Source: Clostridia bacterium (lineage in GTDB: Bacteria > Bacillota > Clostridia > Oscillospirales > CAG-272). Taken from it: DNA of 64,000 nucleotides. The DNA is taken from positions 68,224 through 132,223 of the forward strand of contig JAFUIQ010000011.1 of NCBI GenBank assembly GCA_017468385.1, in the 5' to 3' direction. The stretch's first letter is position 1, and each line of letters begins with the position of its first letter. Under the pieces are notes generated by a model. The model had not been told where the DNA came from. It saw only the letters and a list, made by a program, of their open reading frames with translations, and ran no database searches. The translations under genes were made by a program, and so were the position numbers. Below are positions 18,186 to 59,867 of this stretch, in pieces.

Positions 18186-18230
18186 AATAAAGACGGCTGC
18201 TTTGCCCAACTTCTCATAAGGAAGTTGGGC

Positions 18231-18378
18231 AGTTTTATTCGCCTGCAGCGAGTTCTATTGCTTTGCAGTGATATTCGGCTTACGCCGAGTGGTATTCGCT
18301 GCGCGAGTTTAGGAGGCGAATAAAATACCACTGAAGCTAAAGGCTTCAATATCACTATTGCGGAGCAATAATATCACT
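18231..18378. repeat. Modular hairpin array (conserved 9-nt linker + variable mini-hairpins)
   Basis: AGTKNTATT x4 then inverted AATAYCACT x3, each separated by short stems. Confidence 0.75.
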
Positions 18379-18493
18379 CTTACTTTCTCTGCCAATTCAT
18401 GATATAATATAATCAGCATTATAGGGGTATGGGCATTGCCCTATGCATTTGTAATACAAAGGCGAAACTTGCGATAAAAAGGAGAAAAGAATA

Positions 18494-18859
18494 ATGAATA
18501 ACAGTGTATCAAATTGGATTGATAAAGTTTTGGATCAAGAAATTCCCAATACGGTTGTAGCTTTCTGCTTTAATCTTTACGAGGAATCCGATGGCAGTTG
18601 GGCAATGGAATTGGTTGGAACAGAACGCTTTGACCTCGAAGACGAAGACTGGGCATGCAACGAATTGACCGATTTTGGATCACGAGAGTGTTTGTATAAT
18701 TGGGAAATGGAGTGTGAATGGGACGAAGCTTTAGAATATATGGTTAAGGAATTGAGCCGGTATTTAGAAAACGGTAAATATGCAGATTTGCTGAAATCAA
18801 AAGATGGTGTTGGCGTTGGATTTGTAGACGGGAATATCGAAATTTTGCACACTAAATAA
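18494..18859 (+). CDS. AT-rich acidic hypothetical protein (immunity-protein-like, inferred)
   Basis: AAGGAG RBS, TG-n-TATAAT at 18400-18408, 121 aa, D/E/W-rich. Confidence 0.85.
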   Translation: MNNSVSNWIDKVLDQEIPNTVVAFCFNLYEESDGSWAMELVGTERFDLEDEDWACNELTDFGSRECLYNWEMECEWDEALEYMVKELSRYLENGKYADLLKSKDGVGVGFVDGNIEILHTK

Positions 18860-18865
18860 AAAACG

Positions 18866-18898
18866 AACCCCAACAAATTTTAAAAATCTGTTGGGGTT
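18866..18898 (+). terminator. Terminator of cassette gene
   Basis: AACCCCAACA/TGTTGGGGTT stem. Confidence 0.75.
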
Positions 18899-18933
18899 AA
18901 TCTTTGTCTTCTGCAGAGCAATTATGCCTTTTT

Positions 18934-18960
18934 GGACCGTCGAGGACGCCGGTCCCTACA
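18934..18960 (-). repeat. GTAG-type REP element
   Basis: Reverse complement TGTAG-GGACCG-GCGTCCTCGA-CGGTCC: GTAG tetranucleotide followed by GC hairpin. Confidence 0.7.
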
Positions 18961-19011
18961 AGGAAAATCAAACTTCCTTATGAGAACCAGCCCTTCGCAG
19001 CCGTCTTTTAC

Positions 19012-20937
19012 TTATGCCAGAGGGAATGTCAGGGTGACCTTGAACAGATCCCCATCGGTGCTCAGGGCCAGACGGCCCTTTTGCAGTGCCGTCAGGGAAT
19101 TGGCGATGGACAATCCGAGTCCGCTTCCTTCGGTGGAGCGGGAGGAATCCCCCCGGGTGAATCGCTCCAGCAGCTCCTCACCGGGGATGTTCAGCGGATC
19201 CTGGGACATATTGCGGAAGGTGAAGCAGGCGGATGTGTCCGACGTCTCCAGATTCAGATATACCCGGGATCCGGGCATGGCGTATTTGAGGATGTTGCTC
19301 ATCAGATTGTCAAATACCCGCCACATGAGCCGTCCGTCCGCCAGAATGGTGACGGGATGCTCCGGCTTGGTGACGATCAGCGTCAGATTTCGCCCGGCAA
19401 GACGCTCCTCGTATTCCCCCTCGATCTGGCCGATCAGCATGGCGGCATCGCAGGGGCGAAGATCCACGGCCACGTTGCCCGTGGCGGCCTTGGACGCTTC
19501 AATCAGATCCTCCGTCAGTTTCTTCAGCCGGGAGGACTGCCGATCCAGCACGCGGATGTATTCCGCCATGGGCTCCTCCGTCACGTTCTCTTTCTTCATC
19601 AGATCCACGTAATTGACGATGGAGGTGAGGGGCGTCTTGATGTCGTGGGATACGTTGGTGATCAACTCCGTCCGGAATCGCTCGCTCTTCATCCGCTCCT
19701 CCACCGCACGGCCCATGCCTTCGCCCAGCTGATTCATGGTGTGGGCGAACTTTTTGAAATCTCCCATCAAGTATTCTTCCTCCACGGGGGCATCCAGGTG
19801 TCCTGCCGCCATCCGCTCTCCGCCCACCTGGATCTTTCGCATCATGGACACGGAGGTAAGCAAAATCAGGGCAAGACAGGCATCCTTGATAAGAAGAAAC
19901 AGAATACCGATCATCGGCACCCCGCGGGTGATGAGGAGAATGAGAAGATCCGCCACCCCATTGACCGCGATCAGTATGGCGGTTTTCGGGATCAGGGGGA
20001 TCGATCCCAAAGCGAAGCCGATGAAGCGGAAGAAACGGAAGATGCCGCCGCCGATGAAGCGGAAAACGGGCCATACGATGCGGCGCCAGAGGAACGTGAG
20101 GATGCGCCAGATGAGAAGGACACCCTGCCAGATCACGGTGTTTTTCAGAGTGGTTCCGGACTTTACACGAACGGCCAGACTGGTGAAAAAAACCGTCAGC
20201 AACACCGCATCCACAAAAGCTGCGGCAACGCCGAGGGCGAGCAGAACGCGCCAAGGCAGATCCCACATAGAATCGATGACGGCGATGTGCAGAGCGAATA
20301 GCAGAATGTATCCGCCAAGCAGAAGATCCAGGGGAATCTTGTCAAACCAGCTGCGGGTGATTTCCTCGGATTTGCGCCGATGACCTGCTGTGCACATCAG
20401 AAGGATCAGCAGAATCACATACAGAACGGCACAGCCTGCGGCGATGTAGGGCATCGCGTATCGGAGAGGGAAGAAAGTGCTCAGTCCCTCGTGCAGTGTC
20501 TTATATACATCGCTGTGGGGAAGATCCGGATTCACCTGCAGGGTAACGTGGTATCGCGGGGATTCATAATCGTCGCTGTACCACTCCCGCCGCCAAATGG
20601 TGTACTGTAGTTTTCGGTCTGCCTCCGTGTTCGGGAGGGGAATGTCGGAGGAGGCCACGATGTTGTAAGCATCGTCCTTGATCTGGAACAGTACGTTGGA
20701 GTGCTTGTAAATCTCCGACGGATCATCTCCCCGCAGATGGGCACTCCAGATTTTTTCCTCATCAAGGGCCAGCATCTCACGGAAAACGGTGCTCTCCACA
20801 TACGCCTGGGACATGCGGTCCACATCGCCGGCATAAATGATCACCGACAAAAAAGATGCGGCTACGGCCGTCAGCAGAAGGATCACCGCCAACGCACCGA
20901 GAACTATTTTTGCTGCGCTGCTGTGCAGAAGCTTCAT
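19012..20937 (-). CDS. Membrane sensor histidine kinase
   Basis: NVSHDIKTPLT H-box, NLMSNILKY, ERFTRGD, GSGLGLSI. Confidence 0.95.
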   Translation of the reverse strand: MKLLHSSAAKIVLGALAVILLLTAVAASFLSVIIYAGDVDRMSQAYVESTVFREMLALDEEKIWSAHLRGDDPSEIYKHSNVLFQIKDDAYNIVASSDIPLPNTEADRKLQYTIWRREWYSDDYESPRYHVTLQVNPDLPHSDVYKTLHEGLSTFFPLRYAMPYIAAGCAVLYVILLILLMCTAGHRRKSEEITRSWFDKIPLDLLLGGYILLFALHIAVIDSMWDLPWRVLLALGVAAAFVDAVLLTVFFTSLAVRVKSGTTLKNTVIWQGVLLIWRILTFLWRRIVWPVFRFIGGGIFRFFRFIGFALGSIPLIPKTAILIAVNGVADLLILLITRGVPMIGILFLLIKDACLALILLTSVSMMRKIQVGGERMAAGHLDAPVEEEYLMGDFKKFAHTMNQLGEGMGRAVEERMKSERFRTELITNVSHDIKTPLTSIVNYVDLMKKENVTEEPMAEYIRVLDRQSSRLKKLTEDLIEASKAATGNVAVDLRPCDAAMLIGQIEGEYEERLAGRNLTLIVTKPEHPVTILADGRLMWRVFDNLMSNILKYAMPGSRVYLNLETSDTSACFTFRNMSQDPLNIPGEELLERFTRGDSSRSTEGSGLGLSIANSLTALQKGRLALSTDGDLFKVTLTFPLA

Positions 20938-21641
20938 CGTTTTATACCTCCATCGTTCTTTTCGCCCATTACGTATCCCTGGCCCCAGACCACCCGCAGA
21001 TAGCGGGGCGAGGCGGGATCGATCTCAATCTTTTCCCGCAGATGACGGATATGTACCGCTACGGTGCTTTCCGCCCCGTAGGGGGAATCCTTCCAGACCC
21101 GGCGGTAGATTTCCTTCGGCGGCAGAATCTCCCCCGGATGCTTCATCAGAAGCCGCAGAATCTCGTACTCCGTGGGGGTCAGGGTGAGGGGATCCCCGTC
21201 CAGGGTGACGGTACGGGACCGCTCGGCCAGAGTGATGCCCCCCAGGCGGATTTCATCGTCTCGCCTGGCACCGCCCAAGGTGGTGTACCGTCTGAGTTGG
21301 GAGCGCACCCGGGCGGACAATTCCACCGGATTGAAGGGCTTGGTGACGTAATCGTCCGCGCCGATGTTCAGCCCCAGGATTTTGTCCGTGTCCTCCCCCT
21401 TGGCGGTCAGCAGGATCACGGGCACATTGTATTCCTCCCGCAGGCGGGCGGTGGCACCCAGCCCGTCCATCTTCGGCATCATAATGTCCATCAGCACCAG
21501 ATGGATCTCCTCCCGGGAGAGGATCTCCAGAGCCTCCACGCCGTTTCCCGCGGAGAAGGTTTCGTATCCGTCGGCGTGGAGATAAATCTCCAAAGCCGAC
21601 ACGATGTCTTTTTCGTCATCGCAAATCAGAATGTTGTACAT
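20934..21641 (-). CDS. OmpR-family response regulator
   Basis: ILICDDE, MDIMMP, TKPF, wHTH VWGQGY. Confidence 0.96.
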   Translation of the reverse strand: MYNILICDDEKDIVSALEIYLHADGYETFSAGNGVEALEILSREEIHLVLMDIMMPKMDGLGATARLREEYNVPVILLTAKGEDTDKILGLNIGADDYVTKPFNPVELSARVRSQLRRYTTLGGARRDDEIRLGGITLAERSRTVTLDGDPLTLTPTEYEILRLLMKHPGEILPPKEIYRRVWKDSPYGAESTVAVHIRHLREKIEIDPASPRYLRVVWGQGYVMGEKNDGGIKR

Positions 21642-21717
21642 AGGGCTACCTCTTTACCGATCTCGTTCTCTATATGTATTATAGCAAATGGATCCTTAAT
21701 TGAAAAGTGCAAAGAGT

Positions 21718-21732
21718 TTAAGATTTCTTAAG
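21718..21732. promoter_or_regulatory. Probable OmpR-type binding site (autoregulation)
   Basis: TTAAG-N5-TTAAG direct repeat upstream of TGCTATAAT -10 of the response regulator. Confidence 0.55.
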
Positions 21733-21778
21733 GAATCGGAAAAAGGAAAGAAAAGCCCCGCACAAGGCGGGGCGAGAA

Positions 21779-22948
21779 TCAGGTATTCTTTGGTTTGGTG
21801 ACAATCAGCGCTTTTACGCGCTCACAGAGTTTTTCAAATTCCGGGTGATTGCGAAGAGGATCAAAATCTTTTCTCGTTAGCGCAGCCAAATGTTCGCTGG
21901 GATGCAAACAGGTTCCGGTCATCATACCGTTCATGGTTGTAGTAATAAAAATCATTCGCTCCTTTAAAGCATCCGGATCGTTGTGGACGGTATGCCAACT
22001 CTCTTTTGCACTCCATTCCATTCCATCGAGAAAACGGCAGGAAGTGGGCAATTGCACCTTGGTTGTGATTTTCATGGTTTCTTCCAACAGATTCACCACC
22101 GATTCTGCTTTCGCTATTGCTTCGTCCAATTTGCCACCAGCAGCCAGTCGAGCAGCGGATTTGAGTCCCAATTCAATCCGATCCTGTACCCACATATCCG
22201 GTCGGTCATCCTCGGCATCGCAGCGAATGCATGACAGTATCGTTTCCATAAATTGATCAGCCGCTGCTTTATTTTCGCTGCTTTCTCCCCATTTTAACAG
22301 ATTGCTTGGGTAAAGCAGGCCTTCGAAGGCTTTGTATAGTTGATATCTGCGTTCGGGCTCGAATTTTTCCGCGTCCCCGCGACGCAGATATCTTCTGAAC
22401 AGCAACGCACGTTCCGAGCAATCAAAGGAAGTGGTATGCTTTTTCAGAAAATCAGGCAAATGCTCTTCATCCTCAATATCTGCCATGGTTTGAATGGTGT
22501 GGGGATGCATCGGATTACGTTCCAGATACGCTTCCGCCAGCAAGCGCACCTCGGGCAGTATTTTGGGATCACGGAAAGCCCGGTCGTTTCCTTCACTCCA
22601 CGGACGCCAGGCGGAGTCGCTGCCCAGATAATTTCTGCGTATGTCACGAAGAAGATGTACAATTTTATCCGCATCATAATCCCGTTTCATACACTCGCGC
22701 CGGAGCTCGTCGAATGTTTTTTCAGCGCGTTTTTCTTTTTCGATCTGCGGCATGCCGAGAAGCTCGTCAACCGACACAGAAAGCACCTCGGCAATGGCAG
22801 GGATCAGTTCCAGATCGGGATAGGTGGTGCCGTTTTCCCAGCGGCTGATCGATTGATACGTTACGCCCAAGCACTCGGCCAGGGCTTCCTGGGTCAGATC
22901 GTTTTTCTTTCGGAAACGGCGGATATTCTCACCGATAGTCAGTTTCAT
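21779..22948 (-). CDS. XRE-family HTH regulator with long C-terminal domain
   Basis: IGENIRRFRKKNDLTQEALAECLGVTYQSISRWENG..PD. Confidence 0.9.
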   Translation of the reverse strand: MKLTIGENIRRFRKKNDLTQEALAECLGVTYQSISRWENGTTYPDLELIPAIAEVLSVSVDELLGMPQIEKEKRAEKTFDELRRECMKRDYDADKIVHLLRDIRRNYLGSDSAWRPWSEGNDRAFRDPKILPEVRLLAEAYLERNPMHPHTIQTMADIEDEEHLPDFLKKHTTSFDCSERALLFRRYLRRGDAEKFEPERRYQLYKAFEGLLYPSNLLKWGESSENKAAADQFMETILSCIRCDAEDDRPDMWVQDRIELGLKSAARLAAGGKLDEAIAKAESVVNLLEETMKITTKVQLPTSCRFLDGMEWSAKESWHTVHNDPDALKERMIFITTTMNGMMTGTCLHPSEHLAALTRKDFDPLRNHPEFEKLCERVKALIVTKPKNT

Positions 22949-23115
22949 AATTTCCTCCTTGTGGGGTTTTCTTCAGCCCTGCAAAGCGTTTTCTCTGTCG
23001 ACATCTTTATTTTACAGTAGGGGCAGACGAAAATCAATAACGCATTTAGTGAGAAAAATTATCAGTATATGTTAGGTTTTCCCGGGCGATCGTACCCGCA
23101 TCCCCACAAGAAAAA

Positions 23116-23140
23116 ACACCACCGAGCGACCCGGTGGTGT
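23116..23140 (-). terminator. Terminator
   Basis: ACACCACCG/CGGTGGTGT with adjacent A run. Confidence 0.75.
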
Positions 23141-23156
23141 CTTTGCGTTTATTTCA

Positions 23157-24152
23157 TCAATAGGGGAAGATTCCGTTTTGTACGTGCTTTTTGTAGGTGT
23201 CCTCGCTGACCATGGATTCGGTGACGATCAGCCGATTGAACACGCCGAATCCGCCCTCCTCGCCCGCGTTCAGAACGATGCTCTTCACCTCGGGGAAGCG
23301 GAAGCCGACGCGCAGATTGTCAAACAGGGCATTGAATCGCTTGTCTGCTTTTACGACGGTATGAATACCTCCGCCGGGGCCGTACCAATAGGCGAAGCAT
23401 CCGGTAAACTGGCTGCGGCAGCAGTCTGCCACGCGGAATCCCACGCCGTACTGATCGCTGTAGCAGTAGTAGTACCAGTTGTTGGTGTTTTCATCCCAGA
23501 ACGCGCAGGCGTCGGCGTAATCCGAATAGTTCCCGCTGTACAACGGATGCACGTTCTGCAAAGCGTTGCCGCCGGTCTTGATGCGCACGCCCACATGGGC
23601 ACGGCAGATGCGCATATTGGTCAGGGTATTGTCCGCGCCCTCGATCAGCACGCCTACAGAATCCTTCGTGCCGGTGCAGGTGATGTTCACGCCGGAAATG
23701 TCGCTGTCGGAGGAGCCGCTGTTGGCGCCGTGCTTGATATGGATACCCATGATCACGTGCTTGATGGAGGTGTCCCGGATCACGGTTTCCCGGCCGCTGT
23801 CGATGGAGATGCCGTTTGCCACGTTATTGCCGTCCACGATGCCGCCGCTGAAGAAATAATTGCTTCCGTTTTCAAAGATGTTGTTGGCGGGGTGAATGGC
23901 GCCCAGACGGACCATGGCCTCCGGCGAATCCCAATCGGGGGATGCCTGGAACACTGCAAAGGAAGCCAGCTGCAGGGATACGCTTTTCGCCGGATCGGCG
24001 GGGGTGCAGATGGGCTTTCTCAGCCGATACACGCCGTCAGGGAAAAAGATGGTGCGATTGGGGTTTTCGTCAATCAGTTGCTGGATGGCATCCGACGCAT
24101 CCGTGATGCCGTCCCGCGGCACATTGTCCGCCACAAGATATGCTGTGTTCAT
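23157..24152 (-). CDS. Pectate-lyase-superfamily / GH28-related beta-helix protein
   Basis: DGITDASDAIQQLID..TIFFPDGVY N-terminal motif; beta-helix-like repeats; no signal peptide. Confidence 0.75.
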   Translation of the reverse strand: MNTAYLVADNVPRDGITDASDAIQQLIDENPNRTIFFPDGVYRLRKPICTPADPAKSVSLQLASFAVFQASPDWDSPEAMVRLGAIHPANNIFENGSNYFFSGGIVDGNNVANGISIDSGRETVIRDTSIKHVIMGIHIKHGANSGSSDSDISGVNITCTGTKDSVGVLIEGADNTLTNMRICRAHVGVRIKTGGNALQNVHPLYSGNYSDYADACAFWDENTNNWYYYCYSDQYGVGFRVADCCRSQFTGCFAYWYGPGGGIHTVVKADKRFNALFDNLRVGFRFPEVKSIVLNAGEEGGFGVFNRLIVTESMVSEDTYKKHVQNGIFPY

Positions 24153-24210
24153 GTTTGATTCCTCCGCCTGTGCGAGTTTTTTCTCATTTTAAAATATGCC
24201 GGGGAGGATG

Positions 24211-25758
24211 TCAAGGGTGCGGCCGCTTTTTATAAAAAAACAGACCGTTTTCTGTGAGGAGCAAACACAGCAAGTACAAAAGGATGACTGCCGCGATCCG
24301 CACACCGCACATTCCGCCCGCGCCGATCAGCGGGACTGACGGGAATCCGGAGAGAAAATGGATGGCGGATGTGGCGAAGATCACGCACAGAAGGGGACGG
24401 AGCACCCAACTGCCCACCCGGGGGCGCAGTCCCGTCACCTGCAGAAGACGGCTGATGGAGAGCGCGGCGTTCATCAATTCGCAGGAGTACTGCACGAAAA
24501 AGTATCCCGCCAGCCCGAAGCGGGGGATCAGGAGCAGCACAAGGATCAGACAGCAGAAGGAATCGACGATGTTCACACGCATGCAGTACACCTGCTCCCC
24601 CAGCCCCTTCAGCATCGCGTCCACGGCGGTGTCCAGATACATCACGGGGATCAGCGGGGCAATTCGTGCCAGCTGCAGCGCCGCATCGGTGCCGGGATAG
24701 AGGGCGGTGCCCAGATCGTAAGCGAAGCTGAGGAAGATGCCCGCCGTGCCGATGGCGAACAGCAGGGAAGTGCGCATGACCTTTCCCGCGATGGCGCGGA
24801 TTTTGTCCGTTTCGCCCCGGGCCTGGAATTCGGTGAATTCCGGTATCAGCAATCCCGCAAAGGCGCCCAGCACCGCCGAGGGGAAAAAGATCAGCGGATA
24901 CACCATCCCATGCAGAACGCCGTAGGAGGCCAGGGCGGACGAGGCGGATGCGCCGTTCTTCCGGAATCCCCACGGGATGGCCAGATGCTCCGCCGTCAGC
25001 AGGCCCTGCCGGGCATAGGCTCCCACCGCCACGGGAAAGGCGGTGTGGAACACCTGCGAAAAGGCTGACGGGATCGAATGGGAATCCCCCCGCCTCCGGC
25101 GGAGACTGTCCCGCAGATACAATAGCAGGGACGTGATCATGGATGCCCCCTCCGAGAGAGCAGCCCCGCCCACCACGGCCAGACAGGCGTATTCGATCCC
25201 CGCCGGGGCAAACAGAAGCAGGGCCGATGCGGTGAGGCTGATCTTCACAAACTGCTCCAGCACGGATACGAGGGCGTTTTTGTACACGCGGCGTACCCCC
25301 GTAAAGTATCCCGCCAGGGCGGAGGAGAGGGATATGGCGGGCAAACTGCCGGCCAGCACCCGCAAAGAGGGGATCGTCCGAGTGTCTCCCAGCAGATGGA
25401 TGCCGATCGCCTCCGAGGCGGAAAACAGGATCAGGGCGGCACCGATCCCGAACAGAAGACTGTAGGCGATGCACCCCCGCATCACCCGCCGCAGCCGGGC
25501 GGATCCGTGGGCAAAATCTTCCACTTCGCTTTCGCTGAGGGCGCGGGCGGTCAATCGCACTGCCGCCAGATTGACGCCGGATGTAGCCACGGTGACGGAC
25601 AGGCCGTATACGCTCATCACCAGCGTCACGAGGCCCATGCCCTCTGCCCCCACCTTGGCGGATACATAGGTGTTGAAGCTGACGGTAACAAACCGCAGAA
25701 ACAGTTGCACGCCCGCCAGGAGCGCGGCGTTTCGGAAAAAACGTTGGCCGTTTCGCAT
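24211..25758 (-). CDS. spoVB: SpoVB-like MOP/MurJ-family flippase
   Basis: VGAEGMGL, EQFVKI, YGVLHGMVYPLIFFP, LKGLGEQ; many TM helices. Confidence 0.8.
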   Translation of the reverse strand: MRNGQRFFRNAALLAGVQLFLRFVTVSFNTYVSAKVGAEGMGLVTLVMSVYGLSVTVATSGVNLAAVRLTARALSESEVEDFAHGSARLRRVMRGCIAYSLLFGIGAALILFSASEAIGIHLLGDTRTIPSLRVLAGSLPAISLSSALAGYFTGVRRVYKNALVSVLEQFVKISLTASALLLFAPAGIEYACLAVVGGAALSEGASMITSLLLYLRDSLRRRRGDSHSIPSAFSQVFHTAFPVAVGAYARQGLLTAEHLAIPWGFRKNGASASSALASYGVLHGMVYPLIFFPSAVLGAFAGLLIPEFTEFQARGETDKIRAIAGKVMRTSLLFAIGTAGIFLSFAYDLGTALYPGTDAALQLARIAPLIPVMYLDTAVDAMLKGLGEQVYCMRVNIVDSFCCLILVLLLIPRFGLAGYFFVQYSCELMNAALSISRLLQVTGLRPRVGSWVLRPLLCVIFATSAIHFLSGFPSVPLIGAGGMCGVRIAAVILLYLLCLLLTENGLFFYKKRPHP

Positions 25759-25795
25759 GGGTGGTGATCCTTCTCCCTGATGAATTGTTTCGGTA

Positions 25796-25825
25796 ATGTG
25801 TATGGCGGAGGCGGTTTTTCTATGC
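25796..25825 (-). promoter_or_regulatory. sigmaE-like sporulation promoter of spoVB
   Basis: GCATAGA-14-CATACACA on minus strand. Confidence 0.5.
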
Positions 25826-25937
25826 ATCGGCGGCGGTCGGTGCAGGATTTTGGGGGAATCTTTCACTTCGGCTATTGCAATCGGGGGCACTTCTTGGTAA
25901 AATAAAATAAGAGATTTTTTGTCCGGGAGAATATATA

Positions 25938-26426: not shown

Positions 26427-26436
26427 GGCGGTATAT

Positions 26437-31746: not shown

Positions 31747-31766
31747 ATGTGTTTGTGAGTAGTTAT

Positions 31767-50938: not shown

Positions 50939-50953
50939 AGGAAGCGTTTTTGT

Positions 50954-51958: not shown

Positions 51959-51996
51959 ACCGATCGTACCGATGAAACCAAGAGAGGAGACGGCGT

Positions 51997-53340
51997 ATGC
52001 CAACCCCCAGCGGAAATCGCCCGACGGGCGCATCCAAAGCCAATACCAACGCACCGCGCAAGCGCGTCGCTGTTTCCCAGGAACCCCGGCAGGCATCGGA
52101 TGATGCACCCGTGCGCCGCGGCCGTGCCGTGCGCCGTGTCAGCGATCTGACGGTGCAGCGGGAGAAGCTACACCCTGCCAAAGCGAAGAGTGGGGATGAG
52201 GAGATCATCCGTGTAAAAACAGGCGTGGACCGCACCATGCTGGTCCTGATCCTGATCCTTCTGTCCCTTGGTTCCATTATGGTGTTCAGCGCCAGCTATC
52301 CGTCGGCTCTGGCCGAGCGGGGGGATAGCCTGTTCTATATCAAAAAGCAGCTTTTGTTCATCGCGGTGGGCCTCGGCGCCATGGCTCTTGCCAGTATTGT
52401 GCCCCCGTCTCTTTATAAAAAAGTATCGATTATTGCGTTCGCCGTAGCCTTGTTCCTGTTGGTGATCGTGCTGATCCCCGGAATCGGTATCAGCAACGGC
52501 GAGGCCCGCCGGTGGCTGGGCCTGAAAGGCACGCCCTTCACGTTCCAACCGTCGGAATTGATGAAGGTGGCGCTGGTCATGGTGCTTGCCTGGTATCTGG
52601 ACAGATTCCGTGATGCGGTACTGGATCGCCTCGACAAGAAAAAATACATCCTGTACGGCACGCTGTTCCCCTGTGCCCTGGTGGGCCTGGCCTGCATTCT
52701 CGTGATGCTGGAAAAGCATCTGTCGGGGACCATCATCGTGGGCATGATCGGCGTGTGCATGATGTTCATCGGCGGTGTCCATCCCGGATGGATGTCGGCT
52801 GTGGTGGGCGTGGGCGGCCTCGGTGCCATCGCCGCGTTTCTGGCGGCCAATCCCTACGCTTGGAAGCGAATCACCAGCTTCACGGACGAGAATGCCGACA
52901 AACTGGATGAGGCGTGGCAGACCACCCAGGGGCTGTATGCCATCGGCTCCGGCGGCGCACTGGGCGTGGGCCTCGGTGCCAGCCGTCAGAAATACAGTTA
53001 CGTATCCGAGGCGCAGAACGACTTTATCTTCACCATCTGGTGTGAGGAGATGGGATTCGTCGGCGCGGTGGTGCTGATCGTGTTGTTCCTTCTGTTCATC
53101 TGGCGAGGGTATGTGATCGCCATGCGGGCACCGGATACCTTCTCCGCGCTGCTGGTTTTCGGCATCATCAGCCAGGTGGGCATCCAGGCATTCCTCAATA
53201 TCGGTGTGGTCACCGATGTACTGCCCAATACGGGCATCGCGCTTCCGTTTTTCTCCTATGGGGGCACGTCCCTCATTATCCTTTTGGCGGAAATGGGCAT
53301 CGTTTTGTCCGTTTCCAAACATTCCTATCAGAAAAAATAA
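51997..53340 (+). CDS. ftsW: SEDS glycosyltransferase FtsW/SpoVE
   Basis: MVFSAS, FQPSE, EAQNDFIF, LPNTGIALPFFSYGGTS. Confidence 0.9.
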   Translation: MPTPSGNRPTGASKANTNAPRKRVAVSQEPRQASDDAPVRRGRAVRRVSDLTVQREKLHPAKAKSGDEEIIRVKTGVDRTMLVLILILLSLGSIMVFSASYPSALAERGDSLFYIKKQLLFIAVGLGAMALASIVPPSLYKKVSIIAFAVALFLLVIVLIPGIGISNGEARRWLGLKGTPFTFQPSELMKVALVMVLAWYLDRFRDAVLDRLDKKKYILYGTLFPCALVGLACILVMLEKHLSGTIIVGMIGVCMMFIGGVHPGWMSAVVGVGGLGAIAAFLAANPYAWKRITSFTDENADKLDEAWQTTQGLYAIGSGGALGVGLGASRQKYSYVSEAQNDFIFTIWCEEMGFVGAVVLIVLFLLFIWRGYVIAMRAPDTFSALLVFGIISQVGIQAFLNIGVVTDVLPNTGIALPFFSYGGTSLIILLAEMGIVLSVSKHSYQKK

Positions 53341-53352
53341 TCCGGAGGACTT

Positions 53353-54483
53353 ATGCGTGTTCTAATGACCGGCGGCGGTACGGGAGGCCATGTGAATCCC
53401 GCCCTCGCCATTGCCAATACCATCAAACAGAATGACTCCACGGCTGAGATCGCGTATGTGGGAACACAGCACGGCATTGAATCCAAACTGGTGCCCGCCG
53501 CCGGATATCCGTTGTATTTTGTGGAGATCCGCGGCATCCGCCGATCTCTGTCCTTATCCAATCTGAAAACCGCCTACCTGACGCTGGTTTCTCCCATTAA
53601 GGCAAAGAAGATCCTGCGGGAGTTCAAGCCCGACTTGGTGGTGGGTACGGGCGGCTATGTGAGCTGGCCCGTGGTGAAGGCCGCATCCCGGATGGGAATC
53701 CCCTGTGCCTTGCACGAGTCCAACGCCATCCCCGGCGTGGCAGTCCGTATGCTGGCGCCTTGCGTGGACCGTGTGTATTTGAATTTTGAGGAAACCGGGA
53801 AGAATTTGAAATGTCCCGAGAAACTGCTTCGCGTGGGCAATCCCACCCTGCATCCCGCCGTGGCACCCAGCCGCGAGGAAGCGCGGAGGATTCTTGGCAT
53901 TCCCGATAAATATAAGTATTTCATTCTTTCCTACGGCGGAAGCATGGGCGCGGAGCGCCTGAACGCGGCCGTTCTGAAACTGATGCGGGATTTCACCGCC
54001 AAGCATCCTGAGGTCTATCATCTCCATGCCACCGGCGCCATTGAAAAAGAACTGTGCGGCGGCTGGTTCAAGGAAATGGGACTGGATCAGTATGAAAACA
54101 TCAAGCTGGTGGAATATATCTACGATATGCCGTACCAGATGGCGGCGGCAGATGTGACCATCTGCCGTGCCGGTGCCATGACCATATCGGAATTGGCCAT
54201 TGGCGGCAAGTGCGCCGTGTTCATCCCGTCCCCCAACGTGACGGATAATCATCAGTACAAAAATGCCAAGGTGCTGGTGGATGCGGGCGCGGCATCGCTG
54301 TTTGAGGAAAAGGATCTGGAAACCACGGAGGCAGCCCCTCTGACACAGAAGGTGGCTTATCTGCTCTCCGACGCCGGTGCGGCGGAGCGGCATGAAATGG
54401 AGGAAAAGATTCGTCCCTTCGCTGTCCCCGATGCGAATAAGAAAATTTACCTGGATCTTCTGGATCTGGTGAAAAAGAAGTAA
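53353..54483 (+). CDS. murG: Lipid II GlcNAc transferase
   Basis: GGGTGGHVNP, GGYVS, HESN, GGSMGA, RAGA, HQYKNA. Confidence 0.97.
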   Translation: MRVLMTGGGTGGHVNPALAIANTIKQNDSTAEIAYVGTQHGIESKLVPAAGYPLYFVEIRGIRRSLSLSNLKTAYLTLVSPIKAKKILREFKPDLVVGTGGYVSWPVVKAASRMGIPCALHESNAIPGVAVRMLAPCVDRVYLNFEETGKNLKCPEKLLRVGNPTLHPAVAPSREEARRILGIPDKYKYFILSYGGSMGAERLNAAVLKLMRDFTAKHPEVYHLHATGAIEKELCGGWFKEMGLDQYENIKLVEYIYDMPYQMAAADVTICRAGAMTISELAIGGKCAVFIPSPNVTDNHQYKNAKVLVDAGAASLFEEKDLETTEAAPLTQKVAYLLSDAGAAERHEMEEKIRPFAVPDANKKIYLDLLDLVKKK

Positions 54484-54516
54484 ATACGCACATCCCATAA
54501 GAGAGGAGGAGATGCG

Positions 54517-55812
54517 GTGAACAAAACGGAATACTTCACTGCCTACGGCGTAAGGGAACGGGCAGGGCACTATACCAAAACCCGTCGCCCGGTGCATGAG
54601 ATCCGGGGCGAGGACGCGGTGCCTCTGCGGCGATCCCGGGTGCAGCCAACCATTCCCGATGCCGGATTGGCGCAGAAAATCCGTGAGGCGGAGATTTTGT
54701 ACGGCATGCATCCCAAAGACGAGCCGCGGGCGCGGAATCCGTACAAAGTGCGGGATGCCATGGCGCGAACAGCCGCCGCGGCATCACCCGGACGTGCCCG
54801 GCCTGCCCATGCGCAAGCCGCGTCCCATGGACCGGCCACCGGCGCCAAACGCGTCAGCCGGATGGGAACAGAGGGCATCCGCCACGGGCCTCATACAGGC
54901 CGGGCGGCGCCGAAAGCTCCCCCCCGGGCCGCACCGCGGCAGGGACGCCGCAGTGATCCCGATCCGGCGATGAATACGGACGAAATTTTCATCAGCCAGA
55001 AGGAGCGGGATGCCCGCAAGCTGGAAGCCTACCGGCTGGCCCGCAAGCGGAAGATCCACTACCAGATGAACCGGGCGCTGTCCGCGCTTCTCATGATGAC
55101 CTTATTCGTGGGCTGTGCGCTGGCGTTGGTGTACAAGCTGGTGTATGTGATCCGGGATGTGGATGTGACGGGATCCCAGCGGTATACCTCCGAGGAGATT
55201 CTGCTGGCATCCGGCGTGGAGGCGGGAGACAATCTGTACTCCTTCAGCTCGCGGATTGCGGAAAACGCGGTGACACTGCAATATCCCTACGTCCGTGAAT
55301 TGGATGTGTCCCGTAAGGCGCCCTCCACGGTGCATTTCACCGTCACGGAGGACACGGCAGTCTTCTATGCGGAGATCTACGGGGAAATGCGAGCGCTGTC
55401 GCCGTCCCTTCGCGTACTGGATCGGGTCAGCCAAAGCGATATTGATGCTTTGGGATTGATCCGACTGCGCATGCCTGAGATCGAGAGTGCCATGGCGGGC
55501 CGCGTCGTCCAGTTCCGGGAGGAAAAACTCGCCCGGCAGATCCGGGAGACTACGGCGGAGATTTTGTCCTCCGTACTGTCGGAGCGGATCACGTCGGTGG
55601 ATCTGCGCAACCCCTATCAGGTACGCATGGTGGCGGACAAGCGGTTCCTTTTGGAGTTCGGCAGCAACGCAGATCTGGGCATCAAGATGAAAGTGGCTTC
55701 TGCTGTACTGGCGGACGAGCTGTTTAAAACGGATATCAAGGCCCAGATTGACTTGAGCGTCAGCGATTCCACCAGCGTCATTCTGGACAATCAGCTGAAT
55801 CTGGACGCATAA
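54517..55812 (+). CDS. FtsQ/DivIB-like protein with long basic N-terminal extension
   Basis: TM + POTRA (VTGSQRYTSEEIL..PYV..PSTV); dcw position. Confidence 0.8.
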   Translation: MNKTEYFTAYGVRERAGHYTKTRRPVHEIRGEDAVPLRRSRVQPTIPDAGLAQKIREAEILYGMHPKDEPRARNPYKVRDAMARTAAAASPGRARPAHAQAASHGPATGAKRVSRMGTEGIRHGPHTGRAAPKAPPRAAPRQGRRSDPDPAMNTDEIFISQKERDARKLEAYRLARKRKIHYQMNRALSALLMMTLFVGCALALVYKLVYVIRDVDVTGSQRYTSEEILLASGVEAGDNLYSFSSRIAENAVTLQYPYVRELDVSRKAPSTVHFTVTEDTAVFYAEIYGEMRALSPSLRVLDRVSQSDIDALGLIRLRMPEIESAMAGRVVQFREEKLARQIRETTAEILSSVLSERITSVDLRNPYQVRMVADKRFLLEFGSNADLGIKMKVASAVLADELFKTDIKAQIDLSVSDSTSVILDNQLNLDA

Positions 55813-55937
55813 TCTGTTCCGCAATTGCATAAAACCAGAAACTGACATTTTACAGATGCAGAAAAAAGGTTTGAGCCGCTTTTTGATAAAAAAAAGGCAA
55901 AAAATCAAAAAAATCTTGAAAAAATCTGCGAAATGTA

Positions 55938-55966
55938 TTGCAAAAATCAAAAATAAAGTATATTAT
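55938..55966 (+). promoter_or_regulatory. ftsZ promoter
   Basis: TTGCAA-17-TATTAT with AT-rich upstream tract. Confidence 0.6.
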
Positions 55967-56042
55967 ATTGTATAAGACAATTGCCGCACTATGCCTGTGC
56001 GGCGGCACGCTTCCATAAATAATGTTAACGGAGGACATAATA

Positions 56043-57179
56043 ATGCCATTCGAATTTGATGATAACTTTGAAACCGGTGTAAATATTAAAGTAATTGGTG
56101 TCGGCGGCGGCGGAAACAACGCTGTCAACCGCATGATTTCGTCCAATGTCCGCGGCGTGGATTTCATCGCCATCAACACGGACAAGCAGGCCCTGGCCCG
56201 CTCCAGCGCACAGCACAAGATTCCGATCGGTGAGAAGATCACCAAGGGGCACGGTGCCGGCGCGAATCCCGAGATCGGCGCACGCGCCGCTGAGGAGAGC
56301 CTGGAGGAGATCCGCAACTCCATTTCCGGTGCGGATATGGTGTTCATCACCGCCGGCATGGGCGGCGGTACCGGTACCGGTGCGGCTCCCATCGTAGCCA
56401 AGATCGCCCAGGAAATGGGCATCCTCACCATCGGTGTGGTAACCAAGCCCTTCGCTTTCGAGGGTGAGAAGAGAATGACCCAGGCTGAGGCCGGTATCCA
56501 GGAGTTCGGCCAGTTCGTGGATTCTCTGGTTATCATCCCCAACGAGAGACTGAAGCAGGTTTCCGAAACCCGCATCACCCTGTTCAATGCATTCGCTATC
56601 GCGGACGATGTTCTCAGCCACGGCGTACAGAGCATCTGCGAGATGATCAATGTTCCCGGTTACATCAATCTGGACTTCGCCGACGTAACTGCCGTTATGA
56701 AGGAAGCCGGCTACGCACACATGGGCGTAGGCGAGGCTACCGGCAAGGAAAAGGCAGAGCTGGCAGCCAAGGCCGCTATCTCCAGCCCGCTGCTTGAGAC
56801 CTCTATCTCCGGCGCACGCGGTATCATCATCAGCATCACTGCTTCTCCCGACATCGGTCTGGAGGATATCGATATTGCTTCCACTATGATCAAGTCCGAG
56901 ACTGCACCCGACGCCAACGTAATCTTCGGTGTGGCCTTCGATCCTGAGTTGGAAGATAAGATGAAGATCACCATCATCGCTACTGGTTTTGCCAACAAGG
57001 CAGAAGAGGCTGCGCAGAACGGCGCTGCATCGGCGGAAGACGAAAAAAAAAATAATGATGTGAACGACGAGGAGAATGCTTCCTCTATCTCTGACGACGA
57101 GTTCAACGAGATCATTGATATGCTGAAGAACCGCCGCAAGGCAGAGCCTGCCAAGAACAACGGAACCCAGTTGTTCTGA
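56043..57179 (+). CDS. ftsZ: Cell division protein FtsZ
   Basis: [25 protein letters not shown]. Confidence 0.98.
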
Positions 57180-57196
57180 TTCCATCAACGAAATAC

Positions 57197-57228
57197 GAAA
57201 GGGATGCCGTTTTTGCGGCATCCCTTTC
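57197..57228 (+). terminator. Hairpin/terminator after ftsZ
   Basis: GAAAGGGATGCCG/CGGCATCCCTTTC 13-bp stem. Confidence 0.7.
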
Positions 57229-57280
57229 CATTGGCAGACCGGCTCTGCGGTCTGCGAATTATCACAATCGAGGTTGTTGT

Positions 57281-58990
57281 ATGCTTCAACGATTTATCCG
57301 GTATTATAAACCCCATATGCGGCTGTTTATGGCCGATCTGGCCTGCGCACTTCTGTTGTCCTTCTGCGATCTGGTGTACCCCATGATCACCCGGGAGATG
57401 ATCAATGAGCACATCCCCAATCGGATGCTGGATTTGCTGCTCATCTGCGCCGCTGTCCTTCTCGGTATTTATATTCTGAAAATGTGCCTGAATTACTTCA
57501 TCCAGTACTACGGCCATCTGGTGGGCGTGCGGATGCAGGCGGATATGCGCCGGGATGTGTTTGACCATCTGCAGAAACTGCCTTTTTCCTATTTCGACAA
57601 TCATAAAACGGGTACCATCATGTCCCGCATCACCAGCGACCTGATGGATATTACAGAACTGGCCCACCACGGGCCGGAGGATCTGTTTATCTCCCTCATT
57701 ATGCTGATCGGTTCCTTTATTCTGATGTGTGACATCTACGTGCCCTTGGCACTGATCGTGGTGGCAATGGTGCCGTTTATGGTATTCTTTGCCGCTAAAA
57801 AACGGCGTAAAATGAGCGATGCCTTTGCGGCCACCCGCGTGGAGATGGGCGAAATCAATGCCAATCTGGAAAACAGCATTTCCGGTATCCGGGTGTCCAA
57901 GGCGTACACCAACCGGGCGTACGAGAACAACAATTTTGCCGCAGGCAATAACCGATTCGTCCACGCCCGCACCGGGGCGTACAAGGTCATGGCGGAGTTT
58001 TCCGCCGGCACGACCATGATCGGGGATCTGCTGAATGTGGTTTTGTATCTGTCCGGCGGCCTTTTTGTCTACTATGGAAAAATCAATGTAGGTGACTTTG
58101 CCGCGTTCCTTCTCTACATCAGCGTGTTCATGAATCCCATCCGCCGGCTGATCGGCTTTGTGGAACAGTTCCAGAACGGTATGACGGGCTTCAAGCGGTT
58201 CGTGGAGATCATGGAAGCCCGGCCCGAGCAGGATGCTCCCGACGCGGTGGATGTGGGAACTCTGCGGGGCGAGATCGCCTTCAACGATGTGACCTTCTCC
58301 TACGACGACGGCAAGACAGTGCTGGATGGCCTGTCCTTCACCCTGGAGGCAGGCAAAACGCTGGCGCTGGTTGGCCCCTCCGGCGGCGGTAAAACCACCA
58401 TCTGCCATCTGATCCCCCGCTTCTACGAGGTGGATGGCGGATCCATCTCCATCGATGGGATGGATGTCCGGGCGATGAGCCGTTTGTCCCTGCGGCATAA
58501 CATCGGTATCGTGGCCCAGGATGTGTTCATGTTTAACGCGTCCATTTACGATAATATTGCCTACGGATGCCCCGACGCTACCCGCGAGGCGGTGGAAGAG
58601 GCGGCACGGCGTGCCAATATCCACGACTATATTTTGACCATGCCCGAGGGATATCAGACCGTGGTGGGCGAGCGGGGCATGAAGCTGTCCGGCGGCCAGA
58701 AGCAGAGATTGGCCATCGCCCGTATCTTTTTGAAGAATCCGCCGATCCTGATTCTGGATGAGGCCACCTCCGCCCTCGATAACGTGACGGAGCAGATGAT
58801 CCAGCACAGCCTGGAGGAGCTCTGTAAGGGCAGAACCACCATCGTGGTGGCTCACCGATTGACTACGGTGCGGAACGCAGACGAGATCCTGGTGGTGACG
58901 GACAGCGGTATCGCGGAGCGGGGCAATCACGACAGCCTGCTTGCGCAAAATGGAATATACGCCGGCCTGTGGCGCGGCGTGGAAAAATAA
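57281..58990 (+). CDS. ABC exporter permease/ATPase (MsbA-like)
   Basis: ELAHHGPED, GPSGGGKTT, LSGGQKQR, LDEATS. Confidence 0.94.
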   Translation: MLQRFIRYYKPHMRLFMADLACALLLSFCDLVYPMITREMINEHIPNRMLDLLLICAAVLLGIYILKMCLNYFIQYYGHLVGVRMQADMRRDVFDHLQKLPFSYFDNHKTGTIMSRITSDLMDITELAHHGPEDLFISLIMLIGSFILMCDIYVPLALIVVAMVPFMVFFAAKKRRKMSDAFAATRVEMGEINANLENSISGIRVSKAYTNRAYENNNFAAGNNRFVHARTGAYKVMAEFSAGTTMIGDLLNVVLYLSGGLFVYYGKINVGDFAAFLLYISVFMNPIRRLIGFVEQFQNGMTGFKRFVEIMEARPEQDAPDAVDVGTLRGEIAFNDVTFSYDDGKTVLDGLSFTLEAGKTLALVGPSGGGKTTICHLIPRFYEVDGGSISIDGMDVRAMSRLSLRHNIGIVAQDVFMFNASIYDNIAYGCPDATREAVEEAARRANIHDYILTMPEGYQTVVGERGMKLSGGQKQRLAIARIFLKNPPILILDEATSALDNVTEQMIQHSLEELCKGRTTIVVAHRLTTVRNADEILVVTDSGIAERGNHDSLLAQNGIYAGLWRGVEK

Positions 58991-59030
58991 AAGGAGATGC
59001 CATAAGGGTTATACTCTAAAGGATAATAAA

Positions 59031-59060
59031 AAAGGAAGCACGAATTTTCATGCTTCCTTT
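59031..59060. terminator. Bidirectional terminator within cassette 2
   Basis: AAAGGAAGCA/TGCTTCCTTT. Confidence 0.7.
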
Positions 59061-59153
59061 AATTATATCTTATACCATAACAAGCAGGACATTTGGGCGC
59101 CCAAGTGTCACTCGTTAGGTGAACCTAAACCCCTTTGACTAACTCAAAAAAAC

Positions 59154-59738
59154 TTAATAAAACTTTGAAGTTGCAACCCATTTTATAAACTCCGCAAAAG
59201 TTCGTTTAGATGGAATAAAATCACGCAATTCATTATCCATCCAAATTTCACCAAAATGGTTTCCCGTGAGCACTAAACAATATTGATAAGTGCAACCCGC
59301 ATAACAGATTGAAATCACACCACTATAGTATGGCATACTATCTGTATCGAGAGAATCAACATAAGCAAAAGGACATTTATCAAAGTGCTTGCATTTAGAA
59401 CAAATTTCATCATCGTCAAGTTCGGGATTTATGCAATCCTTAAACCACTCTACAGGGTCTTGATTTTCGGTATGTAAAAAAGCTTTATCAAAGATAAAAG
59501 GTTGACTCAATAACTTGTTGTGATTATTAAGATTTGCACGTTTAATTCCGTTTACAATTCTTTCTTTACCATTAGGCATGGTAATACGAACGCCATTTCC
59601 AATATGCATCAAAAAATATTTATAATCTTCCGGTAAGGAAATGTTATTTGTTTTTTCAAATGTTTCGATTTCTGTTTGAGAAAGGTTGTCTTCGATTTTT
59701 TCGTATTTTATCTTTTTTAGAAAACTAAAAGTTTTCAT
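59154..59738 (-). CDS. SMI1/KNR4 (SUKH) family protein with Cys-rich insert
   Basis: EIETFEKTNNISLPEDYKYFL..GNG, GC...LVLTG..GEIW, TFAEFIKW; GGAGGTG RBS; TTGCTT-17-TACAAT promoter at 59764-59792. Confidence 0.85.
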   Translation of the reverse strand: MKTFSFLKKIKYEKIEDNLSQTEIETFEKTNNISLPEDYKYFLMHIGNGVRITMPNGKERIVNGIKRANLNNHNKLLSQPFIFDKAFLHTENQDPVEWFKDCINPELDDDEICSKCKHFDKCPFAYVDSLDTDSMPYYSGVISICYAGCTYQYCLVLTGNHFGEIWMDNELRDFIPSKRTFAEFIKWVATSKFY

Positions 59739-59867
59739 ATTGCACCTCCCGAAATTTTATTCAATTGTAACTAAATACGCTACTGTAAGCAATAATATTA
59801 TTAAGCGATATAAAATGGTTATGCCAAGTATCCTTACGGGTACTTGGCATAAATCATCTTCTTTTTG

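Follow-up and report, generated by a model that had tools for sequence, protein, structure and literature searches.

Two short blocks of low GC content, each holding one gene and each standing between convergent genes, interrupt a stretch of 64,000 nucleotides of contig JAFUIQ010000011.1 from a Clostridia bacterium (the window), and the question raised by them is whether they are mobile units and, if so, which enzyme would move them. At locus 1 the block separates a small membrane-protein gene (17775-18185, +) from a histidine-kinase gene (19012-20937, -), at locus 2 an ABC-transporter gene (57281-58990, +) from a zinc-ribbon gene (59868-60263, -). Read in the direction of the enclosed gene, each block starts with a palindrome, i.e., TGCCCAACTTC-TCATAAG-GAAGTTGGGCA at 18203-18231 (+) and TGCCAAGTAC-CCGTAAG-GATACTTGGCA, the reverse complement of 59822-59849. 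An earlier note on the window had taken both palindromes for related ends of a possible undescribed class of AT-rich, self-terminated cassettes, delivered to terminators by an enzyme acting in trans. The answer given here is that both blocks are indeed cassettes residing in the loop of a bidirectional terminator, and that the enzyme which inserted them was probably a serine recombinase whose gene lies on related elements of larger size. The source genome (2,225,653 bases in 62 contigs, 93.6% complete; named G000 in the following, with G, C and L numbers denoting genomes, contigs and loci) possesses a G+C content of 53.9%, and as compared to this value of 0.539 the GC fraction was found to be 0.38 at 18401-18800 and 0.345-0.385 at 59201-60000, which agrees with the AT-richness ascribed to the cassettes. 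The metagenome runs containing the window are gut metagenomes.

Evidence for mobility was obtained at locus 1 from the contigs of four gut-metagenome runs, which were aligned to positions 17300-19900, whereby stretches of the runs X5 and X9 without contig cover were excluded as evidence. Contigs of two of the four runs, X6 and X9, which come from different studies, join position 18201 directly to 18994 (X6: 4398 nt, with 17 differences over ~1.6 kb; X9: 793 nt), documenting the strain variability that the cassette proposal had implied. At this joint 792 bases are skipped (790 plus one TT), beginning with TT and ending with CC, and two letters (TT) fit both sides. Cassette 1 is as a consequence defined as a 790-bp insert at 18204-18993 with a 2-bp TT repeat on both flanks, the TT occurring once in the empty site. 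The latter reads AAAGACGGCTGC-TTTC-GCAGCCGTCTTTT and is an ordinary bidirectional terminator with its hairpin GACGGCTGC-TTTC-GCAGCCGTC intact; the homologous terminator is likewise intact in the congeners G012 and G008, where the left neighbour gene differs. When occupied, the two terminator arms (AAAGACGGCTGC at 18189-18200 and the arm ending at 19008) are still complementary, exact over 12 nt. As palindrome, gene and inverted core lie inside the segment skipped by the empty-site contigs, all three are part of the mobile unit.

For locus 2, empty sites were provided by other species. Cassette 2 is present in the sister species G013 with 97% identity and missing in the congeners G008 and G012, in which the same two genes enclose GGAGATGC, a 4-nt loop and GCATCTCC. 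Judged from these empty sites, cassette 2 would span approximately 59006-59851, with borders placed to ~2 nt, and on the same basis either of its junctions offers a TT, which reads AA on the + strand. One host arm (58993-59000) is intact and the other (59854-59861) has decayed, so that the complementary arms described for both loci hold for locus 1 and at locus 2 for one arm of the two. A similar split applies to the inverted core copy proposed for the far end of each cassette: at locus 1 the segment 18971-18986, which contains CCTTATGA at 18976, is the exact reverse complement (16/16) of 18211-18226, whereas the site named at 59000, CCATAAGG, turned out to extend from an arm of the host terminator across its loop into the beginning of the insert. 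The right-end partner of the locus 2 core is instead 59011-59026, which, read inward, matches the core at the other end in 11 of 16 positions (manual count). With empty sites at hand for both loci, the central proposal of mobile single-gene cassettes in bidirectional-terminator loops between convergent genes stands.

The ends of both cassettes recur far beyond the window. A homology search with locus 1 covered 41 genomes (G000 and 40 relatives) and identified three blocks dispersed in many genera of several families (18183-18500, 18421-18484 and 18855-19013); in the same genomes the cargo gene lying between them is not itself a dispersed repeat. In the four gut metagenomes the end modules reach a depth of 180-1060 as compared to 5-35 in the flanking genes, i.e., 6 to ~200 times as much, and it is because of this high repetition that assemblies break at such loci. 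A contig of G000 (C61:5454-6364) that repeats window 18990-19900 with few differences stops precisely where cassette 1 has its right border; it represents an assembly break at a repeat, nothing beyond, and hints at a strain mixture in the sample.

Searches for the cores made use of a family set of 61 genomes, one per genus, to which the window's own genus additionally contributes G006, and of an order set of 151 genomes. The 16-nt core of the locus 1 type (L1) was found, with at most one mismatch, 62 times in 17 of the 61 family genomes as opposed to 6 times for the reversed control, often in facing pairs 0.35-1.4 kb apart. For the locus 2 type (L2), only exact 16-nt matches were considered, because the number of matches with two mismatches was about that of the reversed control; nine exact matches occur in the 151 order genomes (the window's own and eight others) against an estimated chance expectation of ~0.1. 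All eight other L2 core sites lie behind an A-run and a short arm, and in seven of them either GTTTTATTCGCC or a block of the Gut-1 RNA type, described below, comes next. The same layout is shown by nine further L1-type left ends from eight other genomes, each composed of an A-run, a short GC-rich arm, 1-3 nt, the hairpin and GTTTTATTCGCC. The stems of the left ends vary in a compensatory manner (GCCCAA/TTGGGC, GCGAGA/TCTCGC, GGCGTT/AACGCC, GGCCAA/TTGGCC and TGCCAA/TTGGCA). Eleven right ends from relatives have AAACTTCCTTATGAGAA in common, followed by 6-9 less conserved bases, the arm and a T-run. Imperfect inverted repeats were accordingly seen at both ends, at locus 1 (16/16), at locus 2 (11/16) and in 13 complete elements of relatives, whereby the outermost 6-9 nt of these repeats are their least conserved part. 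A third core type, ATTTCTCCGCTAAGAA, together with its inverse bounds two cassettes of G000 (C5:48927-50175 and C18:65948-66793, the latter a variant form) and yielded 45 matches in 17 of the 61 family genomes as compared to 7 for the control.

Direct comparison of cassette 1 with cassette 2 by blastn revealed no homology (best E 0.25); their kinship is derived from the common layout and from other genomes, in which one and the same GTTTTATTCGCC/Gut-1 block stands behind either type of hairpin. The relatedness claimed for the two palindromes is thus borne out by their recurrence as left ends elsewhere, and both are best read as conserved left termini holding the same position in two sub-families of one element class. 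The motif scan recommended by the earlier note matched just the two sites from which the motif had been written, in the window (none of 100 shuffles reaches two) as well as in the whole genome; for this reason the scan is circular, and the case rests on the other genomes.

The nature of the target became apparent from the 13 complete elements, which lie between different genes and all possess an A-run upstream and a T-run downstream. In 8 of the 13, exact complementary flanking arms of at least 10 nt (10-20 nt) were found, a length reached by 0-6 of 300 shuffles. A genome-wide scan of G000 for split terminators with exact 9-nt arms gave 14 rows as compared to 1 for the control, which were mostly repeated whole terminators; truly split were only those on C18, C21 (locus 1) and C15. 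The last of these (G000:C15:1507-1881) holds a 357-bp geneless insert between the arms AACCGGGCACCCG and CGGGTGCCCGGTT, with many small hairpins and another type of end, and is noted as a miniature member of the class. An alternative target, namely a pre-existing palindromic site supplying the outer halves of the cores, was considered and rejected: the predicted 14-nt palindrome TTCTCATATGAGAA occurs five times in the 61 genomes (control: once), each time inside apparent coding sequence, and the empty locus 1 site is devoid of it.

Neither window cassette encodes a recombinase, for which reason both are filed as non-autonomous and the requirement of an enzyme acting in trans, as postulated earlier, holds. 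Candidates for its source were found among widely spaced facing core pairs, i.e., 16.3 kb apart in G072 (L053) and 13.5 kb apart in G046 (L054), each pair residing in a perfectly complementary split terminator. Each of these elements encodes a protein of 545-554 aa with the domains Resolvase, Recombinase, Zn_ribbon_recom and DUF4368 (L053:15478-17142 and L054:694-2331; DUF4368 E 1.7e-22 and 6.3e-20), located 59-72 nt from one core and reading outward, and each holds a MobA/VirD2 relaxase; the open reading frames scanned (at least 100 aa) were 5 of 30 in L053 and 5 of 20 in L054. A large serine recombinase (LSR) is found next to one end in L053, L054, L066, G045 and G051. Throughout the 61 family genomes, each of the five close homologues of the recombinase (76-100% identity) has the core or a near variant behind it, and behind a recombinase of a second clade (G081, 42% identity) stands the third core type. 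Among relatives borne on plasmids, the best is 45% identical. The DUF4368 clade comprises multi-targeting LSRs and includes TndX-like transposases, as described in two reports (PMC10083194; PMC13137831), the former of which (Durrant et al. 2022, PMC10083194) gives for one clade member 21 attB sites with TT as core and an enrichment of T/A at the ends. The larger elements, which would act as master elements, bear the marks of this clade, namely its domain set, many unrelated A/T-flanked targets and, seen at locus 1, the TT. Two recombinases of this kind, TndX and TnpX, are each known to need no helper for excision or for insertion.

Some further features of these elements were noted. The recombinase-proximal core is flanked by a covarying 8-bp inverted repeat (TTACGCTA...TAGCGTAA as compared to CACGCAAG...CTTGCGTG; L053:~17190-17245, L054:~600-660, L066, L088 and L089), which would place the core in the loop of a hairpin. 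L053 contains in its middle a gene of a DDE transposase (10675-12108; DDE_Tnp_1_6 and DUF772) that looks like a secondary insertion. G000 itself possesses a DUF4368-type recombinase (C10:6760-8482) that is 40% identical to that of L054 and is followed by the related end AGTTCCTTACGACTG, TT and a complete terminator hairpin, while the other end lies outside the assembly; this end may be a fourth core type.

Because the 2-bp repeat, the inverted end repeats and the A/T-rich flanks fit the DUF4368 clade, the inverted cores were read as P and P' and the split terminator as attB. On balance we consider it rather probable that the cassettes are non-autonomous elements bounded by half-sites of a DUF4368-clade (TndX/TnpX-like) LSR and moved in trans. 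The reaction suggested starts from a bidirectional intrinsic terminator as target, consisting of an A-run, a GC-rich arm, a loop with TT (or AA, TA), a second GC-rich arm and a T-run, which would serve as attB. Recombination at the 2-bp core, with the left core acting as P' and the right core as P half-site, would split the terminator, leaving its arms on either side of the insert. The left hairpin of the cassette with its T-run would then end the upstream host gene, the cargo would be served by a predicted promoter of the cassette's own, followed by leader and gene, and the bidirectional terminator of the cassette would serve both the cargo gene and the converging host gene. Each cassette does possess a terminator of its own, as had been claimed. 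Since the cassette would replace the split terminator on both sides, its insertion is plausibly tolerated. The recombinase would be supplied in trans by the integrative mobilizable elements of 13-16 kb with the same ends.

Several observations weigh against this reading. The 2-bp repeat was checked within one species for locus 1 only; the TT, AA or TA of the other copies were read by eye, and A/T-rich loops give chance matches of dinucleotides. Past the 16-nt core, the hairpin-type left end is unlike the right end. G000, at 93.6% completeness, was found without a close homologue of the recombinase (best matches 40% and 37% identical), and such a homologue occurs in only 3 of the 17 L1-core genomes (G046, G072 and G074), so that co-occurrence is weak; G069, with 15 core matches the richest genome, gave no recombinase match at E <= 1e-100. 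The search for a co-occurring recombinase, as advised by the earlier note, was in this way successful for L053 and L054 and fell short for the genome of the window and most core genomes. No circle junction or excision product was found in the contigs, which cannot show rare forms. Finally, in one cassette possessing these ends (L005) a 92% homologue of cargo 1 is preceded by a gene for a RAYT-like Y1 transposase, and hairpin units headed by GTAGGG stand just inside many ends.

The last two points belong to the main rival, according to which a transposase of the RAYT kind (associated with repetitive extragenic palindromic (REP) sequences, of the HUH Y1 type) moves the cassettes as single strands by reading terminal and subterminal hairpins. 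It is placed ahead of a DDE transposase, and that ahead of a tyrosine recombinase, on account of the gene in L005, the frequency of RAYT-like genes and the GTAGGG hairpins. About seven RAYT-like loci were identified in G000 (NF047646 E 4.9e-19; solved structure TnpArep 4er8, E 1.5e-6), and the covariation of the hairpin stems is what is expected of a structure read in single strands. The assignment itself stays below the curated NCBIfam cut-off (68.6 as compared to 80), with Pfam Y1_Tnp reaching E 0.007, and the REP-like units are optional, being absent from L031, L042 and the left end of cassette 1. Moreover, the ends are inverted on opposite strands and the insertion is accompanied by a 2-bp repeat, and both of these lie outside the known pattern of IS200/IS605-type elements. 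As the same ends bound two DUF4368 elements, L053 and L054, whose scanned reading frames gave a serine recombinase and no RAYT, the HUH-like mechanism considered by the earlier note is weaker than the serine recombinase and is held to be unlikely.

Less probable still is a derivation from DDE insertion sequences, whereby the cassettes would resemble miniature inverted-repeat transposable elements (MITEs) or mobile insertion cassettes (MICs) with terminal inverted repeats of ~25 bp and a 2-bp duplication, moved in trans. Inverted ends, the 2-bp repeat and many short copies with or without cargo (e.g., 370 bp in L056) conform to this idea. Between such ends, however, no DDE transposase was found except the one in L053, which lies mid-element and far from the ends, and where elements bounded in this way encode a serine recombinase, its gene keeps a constant small spacing to one of the ends. 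Poorly conserved outermost bases are unusual for DDE ends, which speaks against this origin given the 6-9 variable nucleotides at the tips of the repeats.

The earlier note had also recognized the geometry of a tyrosine-recombinase core site in the palindrome, and the left hairpin does measure 11 + 7 + 11 nt, i.e., 11-bp arms and a 7-bp spacer. This geometry did not carry over to the insertion: the asymmetric spacer points in opposite directions at the left (TCATAAG) and right (CTTATGA) end of cassette 1, where simple integration by a tyrosine recombinase would have left it direct as in attL and attR, the empty locus 1 site has only its TTTC loop and no such core, and the hypothetical unoccupied core is the very 14-nt palindrome that was rejected above as a target, with its five occurrences in apparent coding regions. 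No tyrosine recombinase turned up in the elements, no genome-wide search having been made for one, and we regard its involvement as very improbable. That the palindromes are ordinary terminators of the flanking genes which resemble each other by chance, as T-runs behind both hairpins just past a stop codon and the few shared loop letters might suggest, is hardly credible, since the locus 1 hairpin lies inside the block skipped by the empty-site contigs, G008 and G012 lack the locus 2 hairpin at their empty sites, and both hairpins recur beside unrelated genes in many genomes.

Features of both cassettes and their insertion sites in the window (strand "." where the feature has no single direction)
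Feature	Position	Strand	Evidence
Locus 1
Left arm of split host terminator, AAAGACGGCTGC	18189..18200	+	12-nt complement of right arm; adjoins right arm in empty-site contigs
TT, left copy of 2-bp repeat, putative crossover dinucleotide	18202..18203	.	joint 18201->18994 in X6, X9
Cassette 1, mobile unit	18204..18993	+	790 bp; skipped by contigs of two studies; end modules dispersed in relatives
Left-end hairpin then T-run	18203..18231	+	RNA fold -22.8 kcal/mol, z -4.0; terminator-like in scan
Left core TTCTCATAAGGAAGTT, putative P' half-site	18211..18226	+	at most one mismatch in 17/61 family genomes
Gut-1-type hairpin arrays	18230..18379	+	one at 18230-18300 (+), second inverted at ~18316-18379, the latter read from sequence
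Putative extended -10 promoter TGATATAAT of cargo gene	18400..18408	+	predicted by reading the letters; not in consensus-scan listing
Conserved leader motif ahead of cargo gene	18421..18484	+	copies of 83-93% identity in 13 loci
Cargo gene 1, 121 aa	18494..18859	+	open reading frame
Cassette 1's own bidirectional terminator	18866..18898	.	terminator scan; fold -16.0 kcal/mol, z -4.7
REP-like hairpin (GTAGGG-type) ending CCCTAC, subterminal, optional	18934..18959	+	recurs near many cassette ends
Right core, inverse of 18211-18226, putative P half-site	18971..18986	-	16/16 complementary
TT, right copy of 2-bp repeat	18994..18995	.	empty-site joint
Right arm GCAGCCGTC + T-run of split host terminator	18997..19009	+	empty-site contigs; intact homologue in G012, G008
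Locus 2
Retained arm GGAGATGC of host terminator	58993..59000	+	same arm in G008/G012 empty sites
Cassette 2, ~846 bp	59006..59851	-	in G013; 4-nt loop instead in G008, G012
Right-end partner ATACTCTAAAGGATAA of L2 core	59011..59026	+	11/16 identical
Cassette 2's own terminator	59031..59060	.	terminator scan; fold -18.2 kcal/mol, z -6.9
Cargo gene 2, 194 aa, SMI1_KNR4/SUKH-1 family	59154..59738	-	PF09346, PF14568
Left-end hairpin of cassette 2, core GTACCCGTAAGGATAC	59822..59849	-	fold -23.1 kcal/mol, z -6.5
Decayed second host arm TCATCTTC	59854..59861	+	by-eye alignment to GCATCTCC of G008, G012

The hairpin at 18203-18231 would thus be at the same time the terminus of the element and a predicted replacement terminator for the upstream gene. 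Directly behind it, at 18230, the RNA motif Gut-1 (Rfam RF01706) was detected with 41.5 bits and E 1.5e-6, below the gathering score of 50, whereas homologous copies at the same position in L025, L027, L035, L041, L042 and L079 scored 50.5-71.4 bits. On this comparison the block of cassette 1 is assigned to the Gut-1 family, the window copy being a diverged member. Gut-1 arrays follow most copies of the left-end palindromes, and because they are often paired with a second, inverted array, a role of the block at the level of DNA is considered as likely as one of its RNA. At locus 2, Rfam returned chance-level rows alone (E 0.29-0.74); cassette 2 has lost the Gut-1 block and retains hairpin, gene, terminator and a diverged right core. 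A segment downstream of cargo 2 (59058-59136) recurs with 80-89% identity beside Gut-1 blocks of G015 and G026, where its orientation with respect to the left end is reversed. In the locus 1 terminator of the sister species G013 a different cassette was found (L002, G013:C20:81580-85782), which has the left hairpin, the Gut-1 block and the leader in common with cassette 1 (~86% identical), whereas its gene, which codes for 155 aa and lies on the opposite strand, and its right end are not those of cassette 1.

The 64-nt leader at 18421-18484 is present in copies of 83-93% identity ahead of unrelated cargo genes at 13 loci, reaches a metagenome depth of 319-1022 as compared to 5-35 in the flanks and gave no Rfam match. 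A new RNA motif with a part in regulation or processing may be present here, or else a point at which cargo is exchanged by recombination. The leader contains two small hairpins, is also found between the genes of two-gene cassettes, and further copies in G000 were located at C5:49015-49069, C18:66191-66228 and C39:~3790-3850. A module read as a common promoter, i.e., the hairpin CGGCAGAGA...TCTCTGCCG directly followed by ATTTGTGTTATAATGGG (G000:C18:66003-66052, L005:~830-880, L043:~30-80, L059 and L067), precedes the first gene of many cassettes as well as RAYT-like genes and would be their driver. REP-like hairpins recur beside many cassette ends and inside RAYT-like genes. Within the latter (G000:C32:10245-10772, corresponding to L045:1498-2073, -; G000:C39:3227-3787; L005:842-1501), an inverted pair of GTAGGG-headed hairpins was seen in frame around the HUH motif, the reading frames staying open over 191-219 aa, and these pairs are the same kind of unit as those scattered in intergenic DNA.

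As for the cargo, the immunity-like character assigned to both genes was found for one of them. Cargo 2 matches PF09346 (E 4.2e-8, 34.3 bits, cut-off 25.4) and PF14568 (32.8 bits, cut-off 27) and, with no toxin gene beside it in the cassette, would be an orphan immunity-type protein of the SUKH/SMI1_KNR4 family. Cargo 1 matched no Pfam or NCBIfam family, and the Atlas gave unnamed clusters alone; 322 clusters of homologues of ~121 aa exist, most of them on short contigs. Its structural model is confident (pLDDT 89), Foldseek gave no match to it at E <= 0.001, and the best Z of 4.5 in a wide VIA-align search is noise. The wider cargo is mixed: among 25 proteins scanned were SUKH, DUF4304, two 23S-rRNA-IVS four-helix proteins, Peptidase_S51, YcxB, an AAA_18 kinase-like protein with DUF559, a RAYT-like protein and at least nine without family. 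In two-gene cassettes of two genomes (L028:1358-1717 and L031:1322-1696), the gene standing first, immediately behind the Gut-1 arrays, is in both cases one for a 23S-rRNA-IVS protein.

The closest known systems are the DUF4368 LSRs themselves, with which the present elements have in common the domain set, many targets, a 2-bp core (TT at locus 1) and A/T-rich target ends. They differ in that the window cassettes encode no recombinase and in having as target specifically a bidirectional terminator, whose loop between complementary GC-rich arms takes up the insert; neither 'terminator' nor 'palindrom' is used in the main text of PMC10083194, and neither 'terminator' nor 'hairpin' in that of PMC13137831 (the MNGE paper). 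The layout of L053 and L054 is similar to that described for IME_Rho_tet, a ~10-kb element with relaxase and serine recombinase whose terminal inverted repeats were taken as recombination sites; according to the portion of that report available, its 3' boundary lies 81-90 bp past the recombinase stop, recombinase cluster and repeat co-vary, and the element inserts mostly into small MAFF2 ORFs (open reading frames) of conjugative elements and carries tetracycline-resistance genes (PMC12904643). This likeness is one of description, the repeat sequences not being part of the comparison, and the targets differ, MAFF2 ORFs there and terminators here; small non-autonomous cassettes are not reported for IME_Rho_tet in that portion of the source.

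A literature search covering mostly open-access articles, with supplementary logos outside its range, returned no terminator-loop target of a serine recombinase, no such cassettes and no comparable context for Gut-1. Already known are multi-targeting DUF4368 recombinases, mobilizable elements with relaxase and serine recombinase, non-autonomous derivatives and orphan Gut-1; new, as far as could be found, are the terminator-loop target, the families of single-gene cassettes, the covarying terminator-hairpin left end and the link to Gut-1. The label 'undescribed' is therefore to be narrowed, as DUF4368 multi-targeting, the TT core and the A/T flanks are in print. Small orphan genes, those of immunity type included, would in this manner spread among gut Clostridia without disturbing their neighbours, owing to the terminator loop and the replacement terminators. 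The published TT core with A/T-rich ends may in reality reflect a preference for bidirectional terminators, which would offer genome engineers a natural rule for safe harbours.

Gut-1, a motif listed since 2010, gains a genomic context. Its original description presents it as a candidate for a non-coding RNA that stands by itself, 'human gut only', and in the text seen gives neither context nor function (Weinberg et al. 2010, PMC2864571). The block after the left hairpin matches the RF01706 model and differs from the published notion in being a fixed part of the left end of a mobile cassette. With REP sequences, REPINs and their RAYT (TnpArep 4er8), the elements have in common inverted pairs of GTAGGG-headed hairpins, RAYT-like genes and a location at gene ends, whereas the REP-like units are optional passengers here, and a different enzyme is indicated by the invariance of the cores as well as by the 2-bp repeat.

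Cis-mobilizable elements (CIMEs), MICs and MITEs are non-autonomous elements moved in trans, and the cassettes resemble them in consisting of ends around passenger DNA, in lacking an enzyme of their own and in outnumbering the master element. They differ from these in that their ends look like serine-recombinase half-sites and in that the mobile unit would be a full expression module, with a predicted promoter and terminators at both ends, which replaces the terminator it has split. Integron cassettes are single-gene units as well, stacked by a site-specific tyrosine recombinase at the attI platform beside intI, and likewise possess a hairpin end with conserved structure and variable sequence. 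The window cassettes are solitary between host genes with no adjoining integrase gene (a genome-wide search for intI was not made), and the class as such is scattered at many terminators, with what appears to be a promoter of its own and likely a serine recombinase. A dispersed, integron-like delivery is thus conceivable, in which serine recombinases would read the shape of the bidirectional terminator and its A/T tracts and in which Gut-1 would be a working part of the cassette end, e.g., an accessory binding array or a regulator of recombination and not a free-standing small RNA; this wider idea is put forward tentatively and is held more doubtful than the movement of the cassettes in trans by a DUF4368-clade recombinase.

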